Part shown: positions 47,066-58,900 of the stretch, one piece after another
Layout of the letters: each line of letters starts with the position of its first letter
How positions within the stretch are numbered: position 1 is the first letter of the stretch
Source of the DNA: Candidatus Doudnabacteria bacterium RIFCSPHIGHO2_01_FULL_46_24
Lineage (GTDB): Bacteria > Patescibacteriota > Doudnabacteria > UBA920 > O2-02-FULL-48-8
Length of the DNA: 64,000 nt
NCBI GenBank assembly: GCA_001777575.1
Contig: MFEL01000012.1
Location: 2,027-66,026 of the forward strand
Direction: 5' to 3'
Notes under the pieces: model-generated
Seen by the model: the letters and a program-made list of their open reading frames with translations, nothing else
Database searches by the model: none
What the model was told of the DNA's origin: nothing
Program-made: the position numbers and the translations under genes

Positions 47066-47503
47066 CTAACTGGCACGAAACGTGTATTTATGATCATTAG
47101 TGTATATAATCCTTTTGATATAAAGTTTTGGCGACGCAAAGTTAATAAAATATCCAAGCTCATACTCGCTGTTTCTCAGGTAATCATACAGCTGATCCAA
47201 AAACAGCTTTGGGACCTTCTCAACAGCTTTGAGCTCAACTATAATCTTGCCAGCGACTATAAAATCGGGTTTATATAACCCAATAACCTTTCTGGTCTTA
47301 GGTGAATAAATATTTATCGGCTGTTCGCGCTCAAATGCCAGACCACGAATTTTTAGTTCTTCAGCGAAGGCATTCTGATATAAACTCTCCTTGTGACCTG
47401 AGCCAAAATTCTTCCTGACTTCAAACGCTGCCCCTTGAATATCAAACGAAACTTCTTTATGCAATAGGTCTTCGTGGATTTTCGTGTTATGTTTAGTGTC
47501 CAT
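47066..47503 (-). CDS. GxxExxY protein (PD-(D/E)xK superfamily)
   Basis: GHKESLYQNAFAEEL and PDFIVAGKIIVELKAV motifs. 145 aa. Inserted between pilM and the major pilin gene. Confidence 0.8.
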   Translation of the reverse strand: MDTKHNTKIHEDLLHKEVSFDIQGAAFEVRKNFGSGHKESLYQNAFAEELKIRGLAFEREQPINIYSPKTRKVIGLYKPDFIVAGKIIVELKAVEKVPKLFLDQLYDYLRNSEYELGYFINFASPKLYIKRIIYTNDHKYTFRAS

Positions 47504-51642: not shown

Positions 51643-53463
51643 TTATTCCTTGCTCACCCTAAGTATCTCCTCGATTGTAGTTTTGCCCTGTAGGCATTTG
51701 ATAAACCCATCCTCCCACATCATAATCATGCCCTGTTCCACGGCTTTGTCCTGGATTTGCGAAGTCGGCGCATGCTTCAAAATCAAATCCTGAATTTCGG
51801 GGGTGACTTCCAAGACTTCAAAAATCCCCTTGCGCCCTTTATAGCCGGTTCCACCGCACTTGTCGCATCCCGCTCCTTTGTAAAAAGTCAGTTCAGTCAA
51901 GCTCTTGATTTTTTTCTCCACGAATCCTTCACGCTTCAAAACTTCCAGTAAGCGGTCAAGGTTGAATTCGCCCCGCAAGCCTTGCTCATCTTTTTCATCC
52001 ATTCGGTATTCCTGCTTGCAGTCCTGGCAGGCTTGCCGAGTCAGGCGCTGACCGACCACGGCGTTGATTGTCGATGCGATTAAGTAAGGCTCGACACCGA
52101 TATCCAGAAGCCTGGGCAAGGCGCCGGCGGCGTTATTGGTGTGCAGGGTCGAGAGCACGATATGTCCGGTCAGCGCCGCATGCACCGCTTCCTCAGCCGT
52201 TTCGCGATCCCGAATTTCCCCGATCATGATGACATTGGGATCCTGGCGCAAGAGGGCGCGCAATCCAATGGCAAAGGTCAACCCGATCTTGGGATTGACC
52301 TGCATTTGGTTGACCCCTTCCACGTGGTATTCAATCGGGTCTTCGATGGTCGAGATGTTCACGCCTTTGACATTGAGCATGGAAATCACGGTATACAAGG
52401 TCGTGGATTTGCCGCTGCCGGTGGGGCCGGTGACCAGCAAAGCGCCATGGGGCTTCTTGACGTTTTTCAAAATCGTGTCGTGATTGCGGTGTATAAAGCC
52501 CAGCTCCTCAAGCGTCAGGGCCCTGGCCGATTCGTCCAATAACCTCATCACGACCTTCTCGCCGTCAAAGACCGGGATGGTCGAGACGCGGAGCGAGATT
52601 TTGTAATTGTCTTTTTCGATTTTGAACCGCCCGTCTTGCGGCAATCTATGCTCGTCAATCTTGAGGTTGGTGATGACTTTGATGCGGGCAATCAGCGCCG
52701 GGTGGATGACTTTGGGCAGAGTCATGACTTCGTGCAGCACGCCGTCAATGCGGTAACGGACAATGACTTCTTTTTCCTGCGGCTCAATATGGATATCCGA
52801 AGCTTTTTCCAAAACCGCGTATTCCAAAAGCGTGTCCACCACCCGCACCACCGGGATCTCCTCAGCCATCTCCTTCAACTTCTCCGTGACATCCTCCGTC
52901 TCCTCCCCGCCCTCCCGCTCCTGCTTGGACACGATCTTGGCAAACTCCGCCTCCAGGCTGGTGTGATACTGATTCAACCCCCACTCCAATGAACTTTTGG
53001 AAATCAGGAACGGAACAATCGTGAGACTGGTCTTTTTCTTAATCCCGTCTCTGGTTTCCAAATCATCGGGATCAACCATGGCCAGCTCCAACTTATCGCC
53101 TTCTTTGCCGAAAGCGACAACCTGATGGCGATGCGCGATTGGTTCAGGCACCAAAAGCAATACTTCTTTGGCAATTGACCCGAGCTTTTTCAAATCCACA
53201 TACTGCACATCCACGAAGCTGGCGGAAATTTCCGCCAGCTTCTCATCGTCCAGGATTTTTTTGTCGACCAAAAGCTGAGGCAGAGCCACTTTTTTGGTTT
53301 TGGCTTCGCTGACCAAATCATCCCAGTCTTTCACTGCAATGATTTTTTTCGATGTCAACGCCCGTTTTAAGTCTTGCTCATCCAACATGGTTTTATCTTT
53401 GTTTCTATTATACCCGGTTCTAAAAACCGCTTTTATTATACCACAAAGCCCACTTTCCCTCAA
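51643..53463 (-). CDS. pilB: Type IV pilus assembly ATPase PilB (GspE family)
   Basis: Walker A GPTGSGKST, Asp box, His box, tetracysteine CQDC...CDKCGG. Probable start at internal Met (about 53388). Confidence 0.9.
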   Translation of the reverse strand: MRESGLCGIIKAVFRTGYNRNKDKTMLDEQDLKRALTSKKIIAVKDWDDLVSEAKTKKVALPQLLVDKKILDDEKLAEISASFVDVQYVDLKKLGSIAKEVLLLVPEPIAHRHQVVAFGKEGDKLELAMVDPDDLETRDGIKKKTSLTIVPFLISKSSLEWGLNQYHTSLEAEFAKIVSKQEREGGEETEDVTEKLKEMAEEIPVVRVVDTLLEYAVLEKASDIHIEPQEKEVIVRYRIDGVLHEVMTLPKVIHPALIARIKVITNLKIDEHRLPQDGRFKIEKDNYKISLRVSTIPVFDGEKVVMRLLDESARALTLEELGFIHRNHDTILKNVKKPHGALLVTGPTGSGKSTTLYTVISMLNVKGVNISTIEDPIEYHVEGVNQMQVNPKIGLTFAIGLRALLRQDPNVIMIGEIRDRETAEEAVHAALTGHIVLSTLHTNNAAGALPRLLDIGVEPYLIASTINAVVGQRLTRQACQDCKQEYRMDEKDEQGLRGEFNLDRLLEVLKREGFVEKKIKSLTELTFYKGAGCDKCGGTGYKGRKGIFEVLEVTPEIQDLILKHAPTSQIQDKAVEQGMIMMWEDGFIKCLQGKTTIEEILRVSKE

Positions 53464-53555: not shown

Positions 53556-53597
53556 CTTGTTCCACAAAAAATGCGATCGCATAATATGCGGAACTGC
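53556..53597 (-). repeat. Repeated 40-bp intergenic element E1 with 12-bp palindrome ATGCGATCGCAT
   Basis: cttgttccacaaaaaatgcgatcgcataatatgcggaactgc, about 100 nt upstream of pilB. Matches 55196-55237 and 55828-55869. Confidence 0.7.
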
Positions 53598-53601
53598 ATT
53601 T

Positions 53602-54288
53602 CTAAAATTCCTGCAAATCATTGCCTGTGAATAAAAATCTTTTTTCCCCTAGCGGCTTAGTTTCCCTGTCGCGCATTCTAAATACTAAATAAGTCTTATC
53701 GTCTTTTATCTCACCCTCAATGCTTTCTGGTGTACCGTCAAATTCAAATTCCTTGCCAAACCAGTCTCGAAAATTCGTATAATCTGGACGATTTTCGTCA
53801 ATCGACATATAACTAAGCACTCCTTTCTCAACTTTTCCACTGCTTACGTTAACTAGTCCGAATCCTTGGCACCCCGTTCCGCAATATGTCGTGAAAAAAA
53901 TATGTTCATTGCCGAGCCATTTTGGATAGTTGATCCTGTTCCCTGAATAAATAACTTTCTCCTGATTGGTTTTTATAGTTTTCACAGCAATGATTTGTTG
54001 GTCCAGTTCTTTCTCTGAATAGTATCTTAGTTCTTGGGATCCGTCTGGTGAAACCCGATCAAATATAACTGATTGAGATATCGTTGTGGGTTCAATCGCC
54101 ATATTATCTTTAATATTATCTCTAATCCTTGCTTCTATGTAACCCGTATATTCGCTTAAAACCTCTTGCGTTCTGAATACATAATCTGCCTGCATAAAAT
54201 ATTCAACCATTACAAAAACAATGGTGACACAAATCATCAAAATTAATATTTTTTTGGTTTCGCTGCTTATCTTGAGCTTAAAGTTCAT
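53602..54288 (-). CDS. Hypothetical membrane-anchored protein
   Basis: N-terminal TM (ILILMICVTIVFVMV). Start at internal Met to avoid a 155-bp overlap. Confidence 0.35.
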   Translation of the reverse strand: MNFKLKISSETKKILILMICVTIVFVMVEYFMQADYVFRTQEVLSEYTGYIEARIRDNIKDNMAIEPTTISQSVIFDRVSPDGSQELRYYSEKELDQQIIAVKTIKTNQEKVIYSGNRINYPKWLGNEHIFFTTYCGTGCQGFGLVNVSSGKVEKGVLSYMSIDENRPDYTNFRDWFGKEFEFDGTPESIEGEIKDDKTYLVFRMRDRETKPLGEKRFLFTGNDLQEF

Positions 54289-55120
54289 GGAAATAAAAAG
54301 GTCCAATTTTAACTTTAAACGTAGCCTTAGTTGCCCAAAAAGGAGGACCATATCTGCTGTCACTATAGTAATGATTCGCGCCACCAGTTGGGTCCGGGTC
54401 TTCGCCTTTAATAACCAGATTTGCGACTTCATAACAACTAAGCCAGGCTTTTTTATCTATTTCATTTTCTGTATGAAATGGGTTTTCTACAAAAGGTCTA
54501 TTGGGATCAGATTGGTTGAAAGCGCTAAAATGTTCTTTCTGCAGAATTACGTCATGATAAGTTTTGCCCCATCGATGTCTCGGGTGTTCTACTCGATTTC
54601 TAATCACCCATGCAACCGCAGTCTTTGCTGCATTTAGAGCGCTCCTTGCTTCACCGAATAACGCTCTCGCCAAAATCATTTCTGGTGAATCATCGCGGAA
54701 GTTTCCAGTCCATTTCGGATTATCTACCGTCGGATCGATGTATTCTGCCTCTGCTTCCAAAAATATTTTGAATATCGCTGTTGATTTCCAAAAAACCGCT
54801 CTCCTCTCCTGGACTATAACTTGATACTCAAATTGCTGGGGGAAGGCTTTTGATATCTCAATTCTTAACGTCTGGCTAGTCTTGCCGCTATCACTGAAAA
54901 TGAAATCCTTTTCAGTAACTCTTAATTCAATAATTGCTTCAAAAATCTCCTGATCAACTGAAAAAGTCCCGATTTCTTTATCAATCTCGACAGTCGAACC
55001 CGGCTTAATTCTTTTGTCAACCGGCAATGTTCTATCGAGAACTTTAATCTCTATAAGGATATCTCGGCCAACAGACTTGCCCGTGTAAGAAACGCTTTTT
55101 AATTTTAATTTGATTTTCAT
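54278..55120 (-). CDS. Cell-wall hydrolase, SleB/CwlJ (Hydrolase_2) domain protein
   Basis: C-terminal ILARALFGEARSA...AVAWVIRNRVEHP...GANHYY Hydrolase_2 motifs. N-terminal domain unknown. Confidence 0.65.
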   Translation of the reverse strand: MKIKLKLKSVSYTGKSVGRDILIEIKVLDRTLPVDKRIKPGSTVEIDKEIGTFSVDQEIFEAIIELRVTEKDFIFSDSGKTSQTLRIEISKAFPQQFEYQVIVQERRAVFWKSTAIFKIFLEAEAEYIDPTVDNPKWTGNFRDDSPEMILARALFGEARSALNAAKTAVAWVIRNRVEHPRHRWGKTYHDVILQKEHFSAFNQSDPNRPFVENPFHTENEIDKKAWLSCYEVANLVIKGEDPDPTGGANHYYSDSRYGPPFWATKATFKVKIGPFYFHEL

Positions 55121-55195
55121 AAAGCTTAAAATTTTATTAAATATAACAATTACTCAGGTCACCGTCAATTTTTATAAATTCCTGTTGTGTTCCAG

Positions 55196-55237
55196 TTGTT
55201 CCACAAAAAATGCGATCGCATAATATATAGAACTGCT
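55196..55237 (-). repeat. Repeated intergenic element E2 (ATGCGATCGCAT palindrome)
   Basis: gttgttccacaaaaaatgcgatcgcataatatatagaactgc, about 90 nt upstream of the SleB-like gene. Confidence 0.7.
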
Positions 55238-55274
55238 TAATAACTAACCGCAACCAACTGCTCAATAAATTTAC

Positions 55275-55838
55275 TTAAATTTTACTCAAACCGAAATGCT
55301 TAAGGTATCTCCACTCTCCTTCGATCCGGTCAGCGGTTACTAAGCTGACGAAAGGGCGAATCTCGTAGACTTCCTTGAGAAATGTGACTTCATCTTCGAC
55401 TGGATATGGCCAGAGCCAGGCGCTTTTTTGCATCTGATAAAAACCCAACGCTTTTAATTTTTGACTCAAGGTGTTGCGGTTGACTCTAAATTTTTCGGGA
55501 ATGTCAAAGATAACAATTCTCCATTTCTGATCCCACCTTTTCGGCTTATTCAACACCATGTCTTCAAGCTTATATCTTATAATTTTTGCTTTTCCCTGAT
55601 CTGTGAGTTTAATCACGGTATTGCCTCTGCCATCGTTGCCTATTCCAAGAATCTTTTTGTCCTTTAAGTGGGACAAGGCTCTGGTGATCTGACGCTTAGT
55701 GTATTTTTTCTTACGGACCAATAACCCCAAAGCCAAGATCGCGTTGGGAGCAACAACGGCAACCGCGGTCAAAATCCCGAGTACTACCAAGGTTAGCAAG
55801 ATATCTTTGACTATTTGTCCCTTTTTGCCTTGTTCCAT
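55275..55838 (-). CDS. PaaX-like protein (N-terminal TM, wHTH, PaaX_C/Cas2-like C-terminal domain)
   Basis: WRIVIFDIPEKFRVNRNTLSQKLKALGFYQMQKSAWLWP fits the PaaX_C pattern. The start codon is embedded in element E3. Confidence 0.4.
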   Translation of the reverse strand: MEQGKKGQIVKDILLTLVVLGILTAVAVVAPNAILALGLLVRKKKYTKRQITRALSHLKDKKILGIGNDGRGNTVIKLTDQGKAKIIRYKLEDMVLNKPKRWDQKWRIVIFDIPEKFRVNRNTLSQKLKALGFYQMQKSAWLWPYPVEDEVTFLKEVYEIRPFVSLVTADRIEGEWRYLKHFGLSKI

Positions 55839-55869
55839 AAAAAATGCGATCGCATAATATGCGGGACTC
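55828..55869 (-). repeat. Repeated intergenic element E3 (ATGCGATCGCAT palindrome) overlapping the PaaX-like start codon
   Basis: cttgttccataaaaaatgcgatcgcataatatgcgggactcc. mRNA sense reads TATTATGCGATCGCATTTTTT-ATGGAACAAG. Confidence 0.7.
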
Positions 55870-55961
55870 CAGAGTTGAACTTAAAGCCTGGGGAATAATT
55901 CCAGAATTAAAATTCCAGGAACCAATTCCAACCAGGCTTAAGTATTTTACTCTTAATATTT

Positions 55962-58900
55962 CTATTCAACGTTGCCGCCTGACTCATACGGAGCCAGCGA
56001 GGCGCTGATGGCATTGGCCGCACTATAGCCTTTGGCTGACAAATCAGCGCTTGAGGCAAATTTCAATTTCTTGCCGTCCGAGACCAGGAAGTAATCCGCG
56101 CCGTCCTTGACCAGCGTGCCATCGCGGAATTTGACGATCGGCCCTTCGGCCAGAGCGGTGTCTGCGGTGTTGGCCCGCGCCACATCGCTGATCTTGAAGC
56201 CATAAGTGTTGAACACTTGCATGGATTCAAACCCGGTCTTTTGATTGCCCCGGATCCACCAGACGGTCTTGCCTTCCTTGACCAACGCGCCTTCCGGATG
56301 CGGCTCGGAAGCCGAGCCAATCGGGCTGCCGGACGGGTAGTCAGAAAGATCAATCTTCGGCACGCCGGTCATGTTATAGCCCAGACCCTTAAAGACATCG
56401 AAGGAAGTAAAGCCACGCTTCGCGCCGTTTAAGCCGATCATAAACACGGTGCGGCCGTCAGAGGCGTCTAACACCAGCGTGCCTTCCATGGCTTTGGCCA
56501 CGGCTGATTCCGAGGCCAGCGCTCTGTCCGCCGCTGTTGCCGGCACGGCCTGGCTGAACCTGTAGCCGTGCGAGAGATATTCTTTTTCGTTTCTGAACCC
56601 TAGCCGCTTGCCGTTCTTGACCAAATAGATGGTCCCGTTGTCATTTATCAGCGTGCCGTTGGGGCGGGCTCTTGTTGCAGAACCTGAACCGGAAGCAGGG
56701 CTGGTCGGAGTCACGGCCACCGTATCGCCGGTGTTGATGCCTGATCCCGGCGTTGGCTGGGAACCACCGCCTCCGCTGCTGCCGCCAGTGTTATTGTTGG
56801 TGGTTGTCGTGGTAGTTGTTCCGGAAGCCGGGACTAATGGCACAAAATCAGAAAAGTGAGAGACTGTCGCGGTTAGGACGTTGTTCGTTGTGTCCACAGT
56901 GGTCGTCAGCGTGTCATATGACTGCGTGGCGTCATTATAGACTCCAACCACCAAGGTGCTTTCCACGGTTCCTGACGGCAGGTCAGCTTCCGTGTATGGA
57001 ATCTTGATAACCACCTCGTCGTTTAAGTTTTTGATCGGACTGCCGGAAGAGTCAACCGCGGAAATCGTCACCGCATTTTTCTTGAGAATCGTGCCGGAGG
57101 ATGGGTTCGGGATGCCCGTATTGCTGGTTGTGGTTACCGTGGCCGCGTTCGAACCTGTGCCTAAGGCATTGGCCGGAATGTTGAGCTGGAAGTTGGCGCC
57201 GATGTCCGTGTTGGTCAAGAAGCCGCCGGAGGTCGGCGTAATTGTTTCCGGTTTTTCCGCCTTCACGGTAAATCCGGTAATTGCCGTCAGGGAGATATCC
57301 TGATCCGTTGGGCTATTGCTGGCAACCGTTACGGTAATCGGACCGCCCTCATAGCCTTTGCCATGAGCTGACACGCTCCATGTGCCATTGTCAACGGCCA
57401 AGGAATAAACACCCGCCGCGTTGGTTTGAGCTACGGCATAACCGCCTAACCCATCATTGGCATCCACGAACGCGTTGGACACGCCGCTGCCGCTTAACCT
57501 GACAGTTCCGGTAATGGTTCGCGCGGCTGCCGTAAGCGTGACAGTGCCTGCGGCCACCGCGGCATTAACCACGGTGATGGAGCTGGTGGCCGGCGATCGG
57601 TATCCCGGCTTATCCACGCGCAAAGTGTAAGCGCCTGGCGGCACGCTAATGGAGAAAGTCCCGTCAGAACCAGTCTGGCCCCCAAGGAAGATGCGGTTGG
57701 TGGTGCCGGTCGGCGTGCCATTCAGCGAGGCCCAGGCGCTGCTCAAGGCACTGCCCGAGGCGGTCACAGTGCCGGTGACGGCAAATAATTGGCCGGAACT
57801 GGCCGTATAACTGATGGTTCGAGTAGTATTGACCCCGGTGGTTTCTCCGATTTTGCCGTAAGCTGGGTGTCCCGCCCGCACCGTGTAGGTGCCGGGAGGC
57901 ACCGATATGACATAAGAGGAAACTCCGCCCGAGGTGGTGGAAACATTGGTGAAGTTGCCGCGGCCATTGTTGTCGCGCACGTCAATGCCGACGTTTTCCA
58001 CGCCGTTGCCGCCGCCGTTGTCAATATTGACCGTGATCGTGATCGGCGCGGCCAGCGTGCAATCTTGGTTCTCGGTTGTGGTGTTGAGCGCGACCGCCAC
58101 TCCTGTCAGGGGAGTTGATTCGCCAACACCGGGGAAGAAGCAGGTGATGGAATAAGTTCCCACAGGCACCTTGATCGTATAATTGCCCGAAGAATCAGTA
58201 ATCCCCATATTCCCGCCGTTTGACCCCTCCGCCCTGACCATCACACCTTGCTGCGCGACAGTTGCTTTAGTTGCAGTGCCGGTTATGGTTCCCAGGGACA
58301 AAGTTTGGGCTGAGAAATCCTGGCCGGTTAAGCTGCTGGAGCCCACGGTCACAGTCTTGCTTCCTAATCTGCCAAAGCCGGGGGCAAAAGCTTCCACGAC
58401 CCAAGTGCCGGCCGTGACATAAAGCGTATAAGCGCCATTGGAGTCAGTGGGACCGCCGGCAAAATTGCCGCTATCCCCGCCGATGGCCGTGGTATCAGAA
58501 GTGGAATTGACTTTGCGGCCGCCCACACCGGCGTAAGGAATGGCATTGCCGGAATCGTCTTTAATGGTGCCGGAAATCGTGAGGGAAGTGGAAGCATCAA
58601 GCACAAACGCCAAAGAAGCTGGGCTGTTAGTCCCGCTGGTTGGGACATTGACTTGCTTGTCTGATGCCGGCGGCATGCCGGGCTTGAACACGCCGCAAGT
58701 GTAAGTGCCGGCCGTGACTCTGATGGTGAAAGCGCCACTGGTATTGGTCATGCCACCCGTGCCGAAGCCGGACGCAGTTCCCGTGGTGGATGTAGCCACC
58801 GGGCGGCAGAACACGCCGGCATTGGAAATTCCGGTGCCAGTTGAATCATTCACTGTGCCGGTAATAGTTTTGTCTGTGGTTGTGAGAACGAAGTTCTGGC

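Follow-up and report, generated by a model that had tools for sequence, protein, structure and literature searches.

A palindromic element bracketing PaaX/Cas2-like genes in candidate phyla radiation bacteria: probable cognate sites of a putatively autoregulated DNA-binding protein

The stretch of 64,000 nt analysed here (the window; contig MFEL01000012.1 of Candidatus Doudnabacteria bacterium RIFCSPHIGHO2_01_FULL_46_24) contains three copies of a palindromic element, E1 to E3, two of which enclose a gene for a PaaX/Cas2-like protein. All genes of the region are encoded on the minus strand, in the order: (i) the gene for a 2622-aa surface protein, followed by E3, (ii) a gene of the PaaX_M family (the regulator gene), followed by E2, (iii) a Hydrolase_2 gene, (iv) an open reading frame (ORF) without family assignment, followed by E1, and (v) pilB, pilC and pilin genes. 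The initial annotation of this DNA had placed three copies in consecutive intergenic regions, i.e., E1 upstream of pilB, E2 upstream of the SleB-like Hydrolase_2 gene and E3 over the ATG of the PaaX_M gene. This is confirmed, since a repeat finder applied to the 64 kb recovers a 43-nt family with exactly three members, direct copies with 88–93 % identity to the reference copy. As judged from sequence comparison, E1 to E3 probably represent the cognate sites of the protein encoded between E3 and E2, acting in its autoregulation.

The sequence ATGCGATCGCAT occurs exactly three times in the window (at 53571, 55210 and 55844), compared with 0.03 occurrences expected from shuffling. A 31-nt core, TTGTTCCAYAAAAAATGCGATCGCATAATAT, has three matches with zero mismatches (expectation 0), and no further match in the window even if up to three mismatches are allowed. 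Each copy forms an imperfect dyad of about 36 bp, GTTCC…ATGCGATCGCAT…GGAAC, with GTTCC and GGAAC as outer arms, and E1 displays the highest symmetry of the three. No degenerate copies of the 36-bp dyad are present elsewhere in the 64 kb, where the next best place matches at 22 of 36 positions. In case of the formerly described element of about 40 bp with a palindrome, the palindrome as such stands, and its extent has to be corrected to the larger dyad of about 36 bp within the 43-nt repeat. Likewise, the first consensus base given as Y is wrong for E2 (the bases are C, G and C), while the ORFs opened by GTG at E1 and E2 are short as stated (23 and 10 codons, each plus stop).

The dyad of E3 is centred 11 nt before the regulator ATG and that of E2 59 nt past the regulator stop codon. 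The centre of E1 lies about 25 nt past the stop of the preceding ORF, a codon separated by 3 nt from the 43-nt repeat and by 7 nt from the 36-bp dyad; this corresponds to the position of a downstream (D) copy as defined below. The intervals between the repeats (598 and 1603 nt; start-to-start spacings of 634 and 1639 nt) contain genes. Coordinates are compiled in Table 1.

Table 1 Positions of the three element copies and of neighbouring features in the window
Feature	Position	Strand	Remarks
E3, upstream (U) copy	55829-55871	no strand	36-bp dyad at 55832-55867; right arm overlaps the ATG of the PaaX_M-family gene
E2, downstream (D) copy	55195-55237	no strand	dyad at 55198-55233
E1, third copy	53556-53598	no strand	dyad at 53559-53594
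PaaX_M-family gene, 187 aa	55275-55838	-	Pfam PF20803; proposed binder of E1-E3
Hydrolase_2 promoter, sigma-70-like	55140-55168	-	TTGACG-N17-TATATT, TG before the -10 box; consensus match only
Cell-wall hydrolase gene	54278-55120	-	domain of unknown function and Hydrolase_2; SleB-like, endolysin-like
ORF of 211-229 aa, without family assignment	53602-54291	-	hydrophobic N-terminal segment
pilB promoter, sigma-70-like	53435-53463	-	TTGAGG-N17-TATAAT, TG before the -10 box; consensus match only
pilB (T2SSE ATPase), 581-aa reading	51643-53388	-	gene calls on identical contigs; pilC and pilin genes next
Hairpin AAGCCTGG…CCAGGCTT	55884-55939	-	between the surface-protein stop codon and E3

Ten metagenome contigs encoding the identical PaaX_M protein contain three copies each at identical positions; with no sequence differences among these contigs over 2581 nt, they provide no population signal. 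The exact element has no match in the GTDB species genomes. A 21-mer scan of metagenome contigs of the Joint Genome Institute (JGI) yielded a single unrelated AT-rich locus, sampled twice (L011, 186-206; L012, 1863-1883), where a single site, CCAAAAAATGCGATCGCATAATATAC, having the 21-mer in common with the window element, is located between divergent genes, with no PaaX_M gene in the stretch read. Since the JGI collection evidently does not include contigs of the host organism, the scan is uninformative on the genome-wide copy number. The GC content of the window is 0.39 at 54001-56000, spanning the PaaX-like, the hydrolase and the unassigned-ORF genes, versus 0.48–0.58 on either side. This stretch might be of foreign origin or simply consist of AT-rich small genes.

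The product of the regulator gene has a sole Pfam match, PaaX_M (PF20803; E value 4.7e-21, 75 bits versus a cut-off of 24), and is composed of a hydrophobic N-terminal segment (residues ~13-41), a winged helix (~46-95) and a Cas2-like domain (100-181). The AlphaFold2 model (mean predicted local distance difference test score of 81.6) is of low confidence in the hydrophobic segment and reaches at least 95 throughout the Cas2-like domain; it displays a helix with a β-hairpin wing (48-92) and a ferredoxin-like domain (106-181). Accordingly modelled, the protein retrieves with Foldseek the PaaX structure of Escherichia coli as best match (8a39; 158 columns, probability 1.0), then Rv0674 and then many Cas2 structures. 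Scores against the specific profiles remain below threshold, i.e., 34.2 bits versus a cut-off of 264.55 for the PaaX equivalog (TIGR02277, aligning to residues 47-170) and 19.4 versus 24.5 for Cas2 (TIGR01573), and PADLOC reported solely sub-threshold Cas2 matches. A sequence search of the PDB with the window protein alone gave no match, and that with the family profile gave only weak Cas2-type and unrelated matches, with PaaX not among them; PHROGs contains no match for the regulator. Pfam detects no PaaX_C effector domain, the C-terminal helical part of the PaaX architecture (PF07848-PF20803-PF08223), in the protein, which ends at residue 187, and neither Pfam nor the fold match (PaaX/Cas2) points to an HUH, tyrosine or serine recombinase domain. 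Because residues 13-41 carry no charge and RKKKYTKR comes next, the N-terminus probably serves as membrane anchor, with the DNA-binding part being cytoplasmic. Across the family, the Cas2-like domain holds nearly all invariant residues, including WR-V-FDIPE with the invariant Asp of the FDIPE motif, and is less divergent than the winged helix-turn-helix (wHTH) domain (0.51 versus 0.72).

A profile derived from 25 family members led to 79 loci from species-representative genomes, essentially all of them metagenome-assembled genomes of the candidate phyla radiation (CPR, Patescibacteria); in total, relatives are encoded at 569 loci among the GTDB species representatives. Each locus was scored by the best ungapped direct match of its start-codon region to its stop-codon region; the scores of 493 displaced controls averaged 9.1 and reached at most 16, their 95th percentile being 11. 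The match between upstream (U) and downstream (D) copy exceeded the control maximum in 41 of 74 non-redundant testable loci and the 95th percentile in 59 of them, and the sequences matched in this way are palindromes of about 30–48 bp. A filter for their architecture (core RC..GY, palindromic centre and at least 7 of 9 complementary arm positions) was passed by 38 upstream and 44 downstream windows versus 10 places elsewhere in 565 kb. This corresponds to densities of 1.79 per kb in the two flanking windows versus 0.019 per kb elsewhere (about 94-fold), with 2 cases in shuffled sequence. The repeat architecture is exclusively associated with this gene family.

Two copies per locus of about 8 kb are the norm (40 of 62 loci), and third copies of a locus's own element are rare (the present window, L083, L018 and L026). 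The copies keep a tight geometry relative to the gene: the median spacing between dyad centre and start codon is 48.5 nt, the centre of the D copy follows the stop codon by a median of 39.5 nt, and the two centres are 666 nt apart (median). The D copy begins 0–70 nt past the stop codon, whichever gene comes next; according to crude ORF calling, the gene after D is co-directional in 27 and convergent in 20 of 47 loci. Since D hugs the stop codon irrespective of the direction of the next gene, it is to be regarded as part of the regulator's own unit rather than as operator of a neighbouring promoter, and D as operator of the next gene was rejected as a general rule in view of the convergent neighbours. 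The mutual orientation of U and D is clearly direct in seven cases and clearly inverted in two.

Two relatives illustrate how the element accompanies the gene. In case of L014 (62 % protein identity), the same hydrolase gene is located downstream, and a repeated element is found before and after the regulator gene, in which the core TGCTATAGCA replaces TGCGATCGCA; all four half-sites are changed in parallel and the palindrome is kept. In case of L013 (52 % identity), an identical 39-nt element, TGTTTATAATTACAACGATCGCGGAAAATATAAACATAG, precedes the start codon by 16 nt and recurs 23 nt past the stop codon, within a wholly different neighbourhood (NUDIX gene upstream, tRNA genes downstream). Maintenance of the pair in this unrelated context implies that the element travels with the regulator gene, independently of pilB and the hydrolase gene. 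Accordingly, E3 and E2 represent the standard U/D pair of the family and E1 is a rarer extra site, so that the formerly assumed role of the copies as operators of the hydrolase and pilus genes is not sustained for what is primarily the regulator's pair, only E1 being additional. At L083 (1-140), the only other locus with three clear copies, a third copy of the own palindrome is located 37 nt upstream of a TTGACG-N17-TATAAT promoter driving the genes for a 189-aa membrane protein and a 1039-aa protein, a two-gene operon that precedes the PaaX-like gene; as an extra site just upstream of a promoter it parallels E2 and E1 in the window.

The anatomy of the palindrome was derived from 50 U/D pairs (100 copies). 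Complementarity, ordered by distance from the dyad centre, is high at positions 1–4 (0.89, 0.81, 0.96 and 0.93), only 0.60–0.75 at positions 5–8, again 0.79–0.95 at positions 9–17 and about 0.5 at positions 19–20. The core consensus RCGA|TCGY is near-invariant, position 3 being C in 193 of 200 half-sites, and its commonest 8-mers are GCGATCGC, ACGATCGT, GCTATCGC, GCATATGC, GCTATAGC and CCGATCGG. Positions 5–11 are AT-rich (spacers), and the 9-nt outer arms are lineage-specific, half-sites differing by 0.17 within a locus versus 0.66 between loci. Paralogues in one genome have the core in common and differ in their arms, a pattern that fits a specificity putatively encoded in the arms. The symmetry extends through the very centre, since 70 of 100 central 4-mers are palindromic (background 0.07); among the 55 centres other than GATC, 25 are still palindromic and of six kinds (ATAT, TATA, CATG, GTAC, GGCC and TTAA).

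Sigma-70-like matches near the U copy have their -35 boxes at +1 to +10 from the dyad centre in 15 of 29 cases, and those near D are scattered. Five loci possess the upstream arrangement …CGTATTGACA-N17-TAAAAT, i.e., a TTGACA-N17-TAAAAT promoter with the -35 box within the U palindrome; in this clade, the palindrome and the -10 box are the sole conserved upstream features. In a second group, no more than 20 nt separate the dyad from the ATG, and the overlap is with the -10 box or the transcription start site (TSS) of apparently leaderless genes. Thus, the U copy appears to cover core promoter elements and in many loci would not be fully transcribable. In many family members (L024, L066, L082, L060 and L043), a TATAAT-like -10 box is observed about 6–7 nt before the ATG and a Shine-Dalgarno sequence is lacking, which suggests that leaderless mRNAs may be common for the PaaX_M gene family in the CPR.

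Taken together, a reading of the element as duplex DNA by a two-fold symmetric protein (dimer) is favoured over a hairpin, because the central four bases, which are unable to pair in a hairpin, stay palindromic, and because the -35 boxes of U copies cluster inside the dyad, such that U would not be transcribed over its full length. Binding by the adjacent PaaX-like protein, as put forward in the initial annotation, is well supported by the comparative evidence (family-wide bracketing and overlap with the gene's own promoter); several of the accompanying proposals are not supported.

One of these concerns a duplicated promoter cassette. The Hydrolase_2 and pilB genes are preceded by sigma-70-like promoters of their own (Table 1), the -35 boxes of which start 47 and 113 nt downstream of the centres of E2 and E1, respectively. 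A further one, co-regulation of the giant surface-protein gene, lacks any link to the element: this gene lies upstream of E3 and ends in a hairpin of its own, and an equivalent hairpin, GATATAAGCCTGGAC…GTCCAGGCTTATATC, is found at the same place in L014. Although devoid of a clear U-tract, the hairpin at 55884-55939 probably is a terminator that separates the surface-protein gene from the module. In case of the regulator gene itself, the promoter candidate in the window is a weak TTTAAG-N18-CATATT, the -10 box of which would fall into the left spacer of E3 and the TSS at the core. PaaX regulators control the paa (phenylacetate) genes in response to phenylacetyl-CoA. No paa genes were found among the neighbours in the window or in the loci of relatives, and neither cas1 nor a recombinase gene (HUH, tyrosine or serine) is among the genes called within 10 kb on the identical contigs.

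The pilus genes and one of the relatives' loci provided some further observations. In L004 (12451-14196), one of the otherwise identical contigs, gene calling splits pilB into ORFs of 203 and 360 aa, which reflects a frameshift variant or else faulty assembly. Between pilM and a pilin gene, the type IV pilus operon in the window contains a free-standing PDDEXK_3 gene of 145 aa (47066-47503). At L013 (5156-7381), a gene for a LepA/EF4-like GTPase has a PDDEXK_3 match (PF13366) inserted between two GTP_EFTU matches.

Based on these features, the following mode of action may be envisaged. The protein, for which the hydrophobic N-terminus probably provides a membrane tether, would dimerise through the Cas2-like domain, and one dimer would read each dyad of about 36 bp with the core RCGA|TCGY on the two-fold axis. 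AT-rich spacers would part this core from the two 9-bp lineage-specific arms that set specificity, with the Cas2-like dimer sitting on the conserved core and the two variable wHTH domains reading the variable arms. Overlap of the U site with the gene's own core promoter would allow for autorepression through exclusion of RNA polymerase, as known for PaaX at Px. The D site may act as auxiliary operator, most likely forming a loop of about 650 bp with U, or else as roadblock, in either case enclosing the whole gene. E1 would extend the bracket over the hydrolase gene and the next ORF to a position upstream of the pilB promoter and may couple them to the regulator. Since the -35 boxes of the hydrolase and pilB promoters lie 47 and 113 nt away, simple occlusion at these promoters is unlikely; E1 and E2 could, however, influence both genes in other ways, e.g., by looping with E3 or by blocking read-through.

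Several observations weigh against autoregulation through these sites. In the window, the candidate for the regulator promoter is weak, with E3 being centred only 11 nt before the ATG, and E2 and E1 do not overlap the promoters following them. As D adjoins a convergent gene in 20 of 47 loci, it is no promoter operator of the usual kind, and a part in looping or as roadblock is conjectural. Centre-finding favours palindromic centres, while the U/D repeats themselves were found without reference to palindromy. Divergence of the arms tracks the wHTH no better than the Cas2-like domain (0.095 versus 0.081), rendering this comparison uninformative, and the higher symmetry of D relative to U is a trend only (27 versus 14, p = 0.097). 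Moreover, two-sided arm differences between U and D number 33 versus 13.5 expected from independent half-sites, and 19 symmetric, compensated double changes leave both copies complementary versus about 4 expected. These changes could result from selection for intrastrand pairing (cruciform) or from quasi-palindrome template-switch correction. Template switching at quasi-palindromes can produce compensated changes without selection.

The excess of compensated changes is also among the observations in favour of the main rival to the operator reading, a partnership resembling that of the REP-associated tyrosine transposases (RAYT) with repetitive extragenic palindromic (REP) sequences, or another type of cassette. 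In this case, palindrome, gene and palindrome would constitute a self-contained DNA element with the repeats as its ends instead of operators. The Cas2-fold domain with its invariant FDIPE Asp would act enzymatically or structurally on extruded hairpins or cruciforms, with nicking, recombination or (past) mobility as outcomes, and E3, E2 and E1 would delimit two adjacent cassettes. Such a view accounts for the bracketing of the gene on both sides with D placed at once after the stop codon whatever the neighbour, as described for RAYT genes and REPs (PMC2817692), for the occurrence of the module in unrelated gene contexts and for the conservation of the Cas2 motif. It is furthermore in line with the location of E1 to E3 within a low-GC stretch and with the complete identity (100 %) of the 39 nt of U and D in L013 and L016, a degree of similarity beyond the needs of an operator. 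However, the protein has no HUH, tyrosine or serine recombinase domain and none is called within 10 kb on the identical contigs, the element is not dispersed (0 further copies in 64 kb, few extra ones in 565 kb), paralogues in one genome are divergent rather than recent copies, and the position of the element is conserved in L014 at 62 % identity. The predominantly direct orientation (seven direct versus two inverted) differs from REPs flanking RAYT genes, the palindromic exact centre points to reading of the duplex, and the compensated changes could, as a matter of general knowledge, arise by template switching without selection. A RAYT/REP-like partnership is considered unlikely. Quite unlikely, too, appears an autonomous element in which the Cas2-fold protein works on its own palindromes of about 36 bp as DNA structures (nicking, recombination, membrane tethering); if true, this would mean that a Cas2 relative and repeats are partners throughout the CPR, in analogy to RAYT/REP, and would possibly be informative on the origin of the association of Cas2-type proteins with palindromic repeats.

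Of the explanations that do without a DNA-structural role of the protein, one places the element at the RNA level: hairpins at either end of the regulator mRNA (and between cistrons in the window) would stabilise the transcript, direct its processing or terminate it, and the Cas2-like domain, which resembles an RNA recognition motif, would possibly bind them. In mRNA sense, E1 and E2 indeed fold well (-16.5 and -12.8 kcal/mol, z about -2.9), the CGC-to-TAT change of E2 retains G·U pairs in sense RNA only, D is located at the 3' end of the gene, and the changes in the arms are compensated. On the other hand, E3 as RNA does not fold (z = +0.81), the -35 box inside the U palindrome excludes complete transcription of this copy in many loci, some U/D pairs are mutually inverted, and the central four nucleotides are palindromic though unable to pair. 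Mismatches on the sense strand amount to 78:49 for G:T versus A:C, but the non-pairing control, C:T versus A:G, is equally biased (47:30). The G:T excess therefore reflects T-skew and provides no evidence for wobble pairing in RNA. A terminator scan of the window made no call at E1 to E3, no U-tract follows the stem, the T-run of the element being inside the dyad and not after it, and D in L063 and L066 is succeeded by intrinsic terminators that seem to be distinct from it; for these reasons, a function as terminator was rejected. Rfam contains no family match. An RNA-level element is the most improbable of the alternatives. Hardly more credible is recognition of the sites by a different, unlinked factor; a nucleoid protein of the host, a general insulator or a methylase paired with a restriction enzyme for CGATCG-type cores would be examples, and the link with the PaaX_M gene would then be indirect. 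The near-invariant core in very divergent lineages would agree with a conserved host factor, and the uninformative correlation of arms with protein domains leaves room for it. Yet the approximately 94-fold enrichment at the flanks of PaaX_M-family genes, together with arms specific for lineages and paralogues, is hard to explain without the encoded protein, and the architecture is essentially absent elsewhere in the 565 kb.

Cognate sites of an autoregulated PaaX/Cas2-like protein thus remain the preferred interpretation. CPR bacteria account for a large share of bacterial diversity and are mostly uncultured, and to our knowledge almost no transcription factors or operators of these organisms have been characterised; a literature search for PaaX in conjunction with CPR, Patescibacteria or Cas2 found nothing. 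The present case would provide a concrete candidate pair of protein and site for the CPR, recurring in hundreds of species and with a readable code of constant core and variable arms. In the window, this pair adjoins genes thought to be central to an episymbiotic lifestyle, i.e., those for the pilus ATPase, the cell-wall hydrolase and the giant surface protein. The second site past the stop codon and the symmetric co-variation of the arms suggest an unusually compact looping or insulating autoregulatory unit, or else a new element made up of a Cas2-fold protein and its repeats.

Comparison with known systems reveals both superficial and deeper resemblances. The octamer GCGATCGC in the core of the element is identical to HIP1 of cyanobacteria, a relation proposed in the initial annotation. 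HIP1 is defined by massive genome-wide over-representation, whereas the octamer is found 3 times in 64 kb, each time within the element, versus 1.63 expected, and 25 of 100 shuffles reach this number, i.e., it is not over-represented. In addition, the host belongs to the CPR and not to the cyanobacteria, and ACGATCGT, GCTATAGC or GCATATGC takes the place of the octamer in relatives. A HIP1 element was therefore rejected, the likeness being coincidental and confined to the octamer. Partly palindromic repeats of about 36 nt next to a protein with Cas2 fold and Asp motif are also reminiscent of clustered regularly interspaced short palindromic repeats (CRISPR). An array of this type was rejected in view of the mere two to three repeats, the gene-containing intervals of 598 and 1603 nt in place of regular short non-coding spacers (about 25–50 nt), the absence of cas1 within 10 kb and the Cas2 score below cut-off.

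RAYT genes have their cognate REPs on either side, in many cases directly past the stop codon, and complementary mutations maintain the palindromes (PMC2817692). Comparable to this, a single-copy gene is bracketed here by lineage-specific, co-evolving palindromes of about 35 nt, one of them near the stop codon. Differences are that the protein is not an HUH/Y1 transposase, that the repeats are mostly direct and not dispersed in high copy number, and that symmetry is conserved through the centre of the palindrome, not at a GTAG head. Looping operators that enclose a gene or pair across it are known from phage lambda, where cI is located between OL and OR, and from lac with O1 and the downstream auxiliary O2. 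The role proposed for D would add a similar arrangement, with one operator overlapping the promoter and an auxiliary one beyond the gene, at a distance of hundreds of bp. The lambda and lac operators differ in being about 17–21 bp long, sometimes clustered and recognised by proteins of other folds, and looping is proven there but is deduced here.

The closest counterpart is PaaX of E. coli. According to a review (PMC9493321), PaaX binds the site TGATTC-N27-GAATCA (39 bp) and represses Px, the promoter of its own gene, by sterically hindering RNA polymerase. PaaX comprises a GntR-type wHTH and a Cas2-like middle domain, and the fold of these first two domains is common to the window protein. 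Its widely spaced inverted repeat of 39 bp compares with about 34–36 bp here, where the arms are at positions 9–17 from the centre. PaaX autoregulates via overlap with its own promoter, and the U copies, which overlap predicted -35 or -10 boxes, would be compatible with the same principle. Unlike PaaX, the window protein has no PaaX_C domain, no paa context, a score of 34 bits versus the cut-off of 264 and an extra hydrophobic N-terminus, and its sites differ from that of PaaX by a conserved central core in addition to the arms and by a second site after the stop codon. What sets the present system apart is its occurrence throughout the CPR, an obligate second site past the stop codon, the tripartite make-up of the sites around a constant core and, probably, a membrane anchor. 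With these peculiarities, a PaaX-type autoregulated DNA-binding protein with cognate spaced-dyad sites appears to be the best classification.

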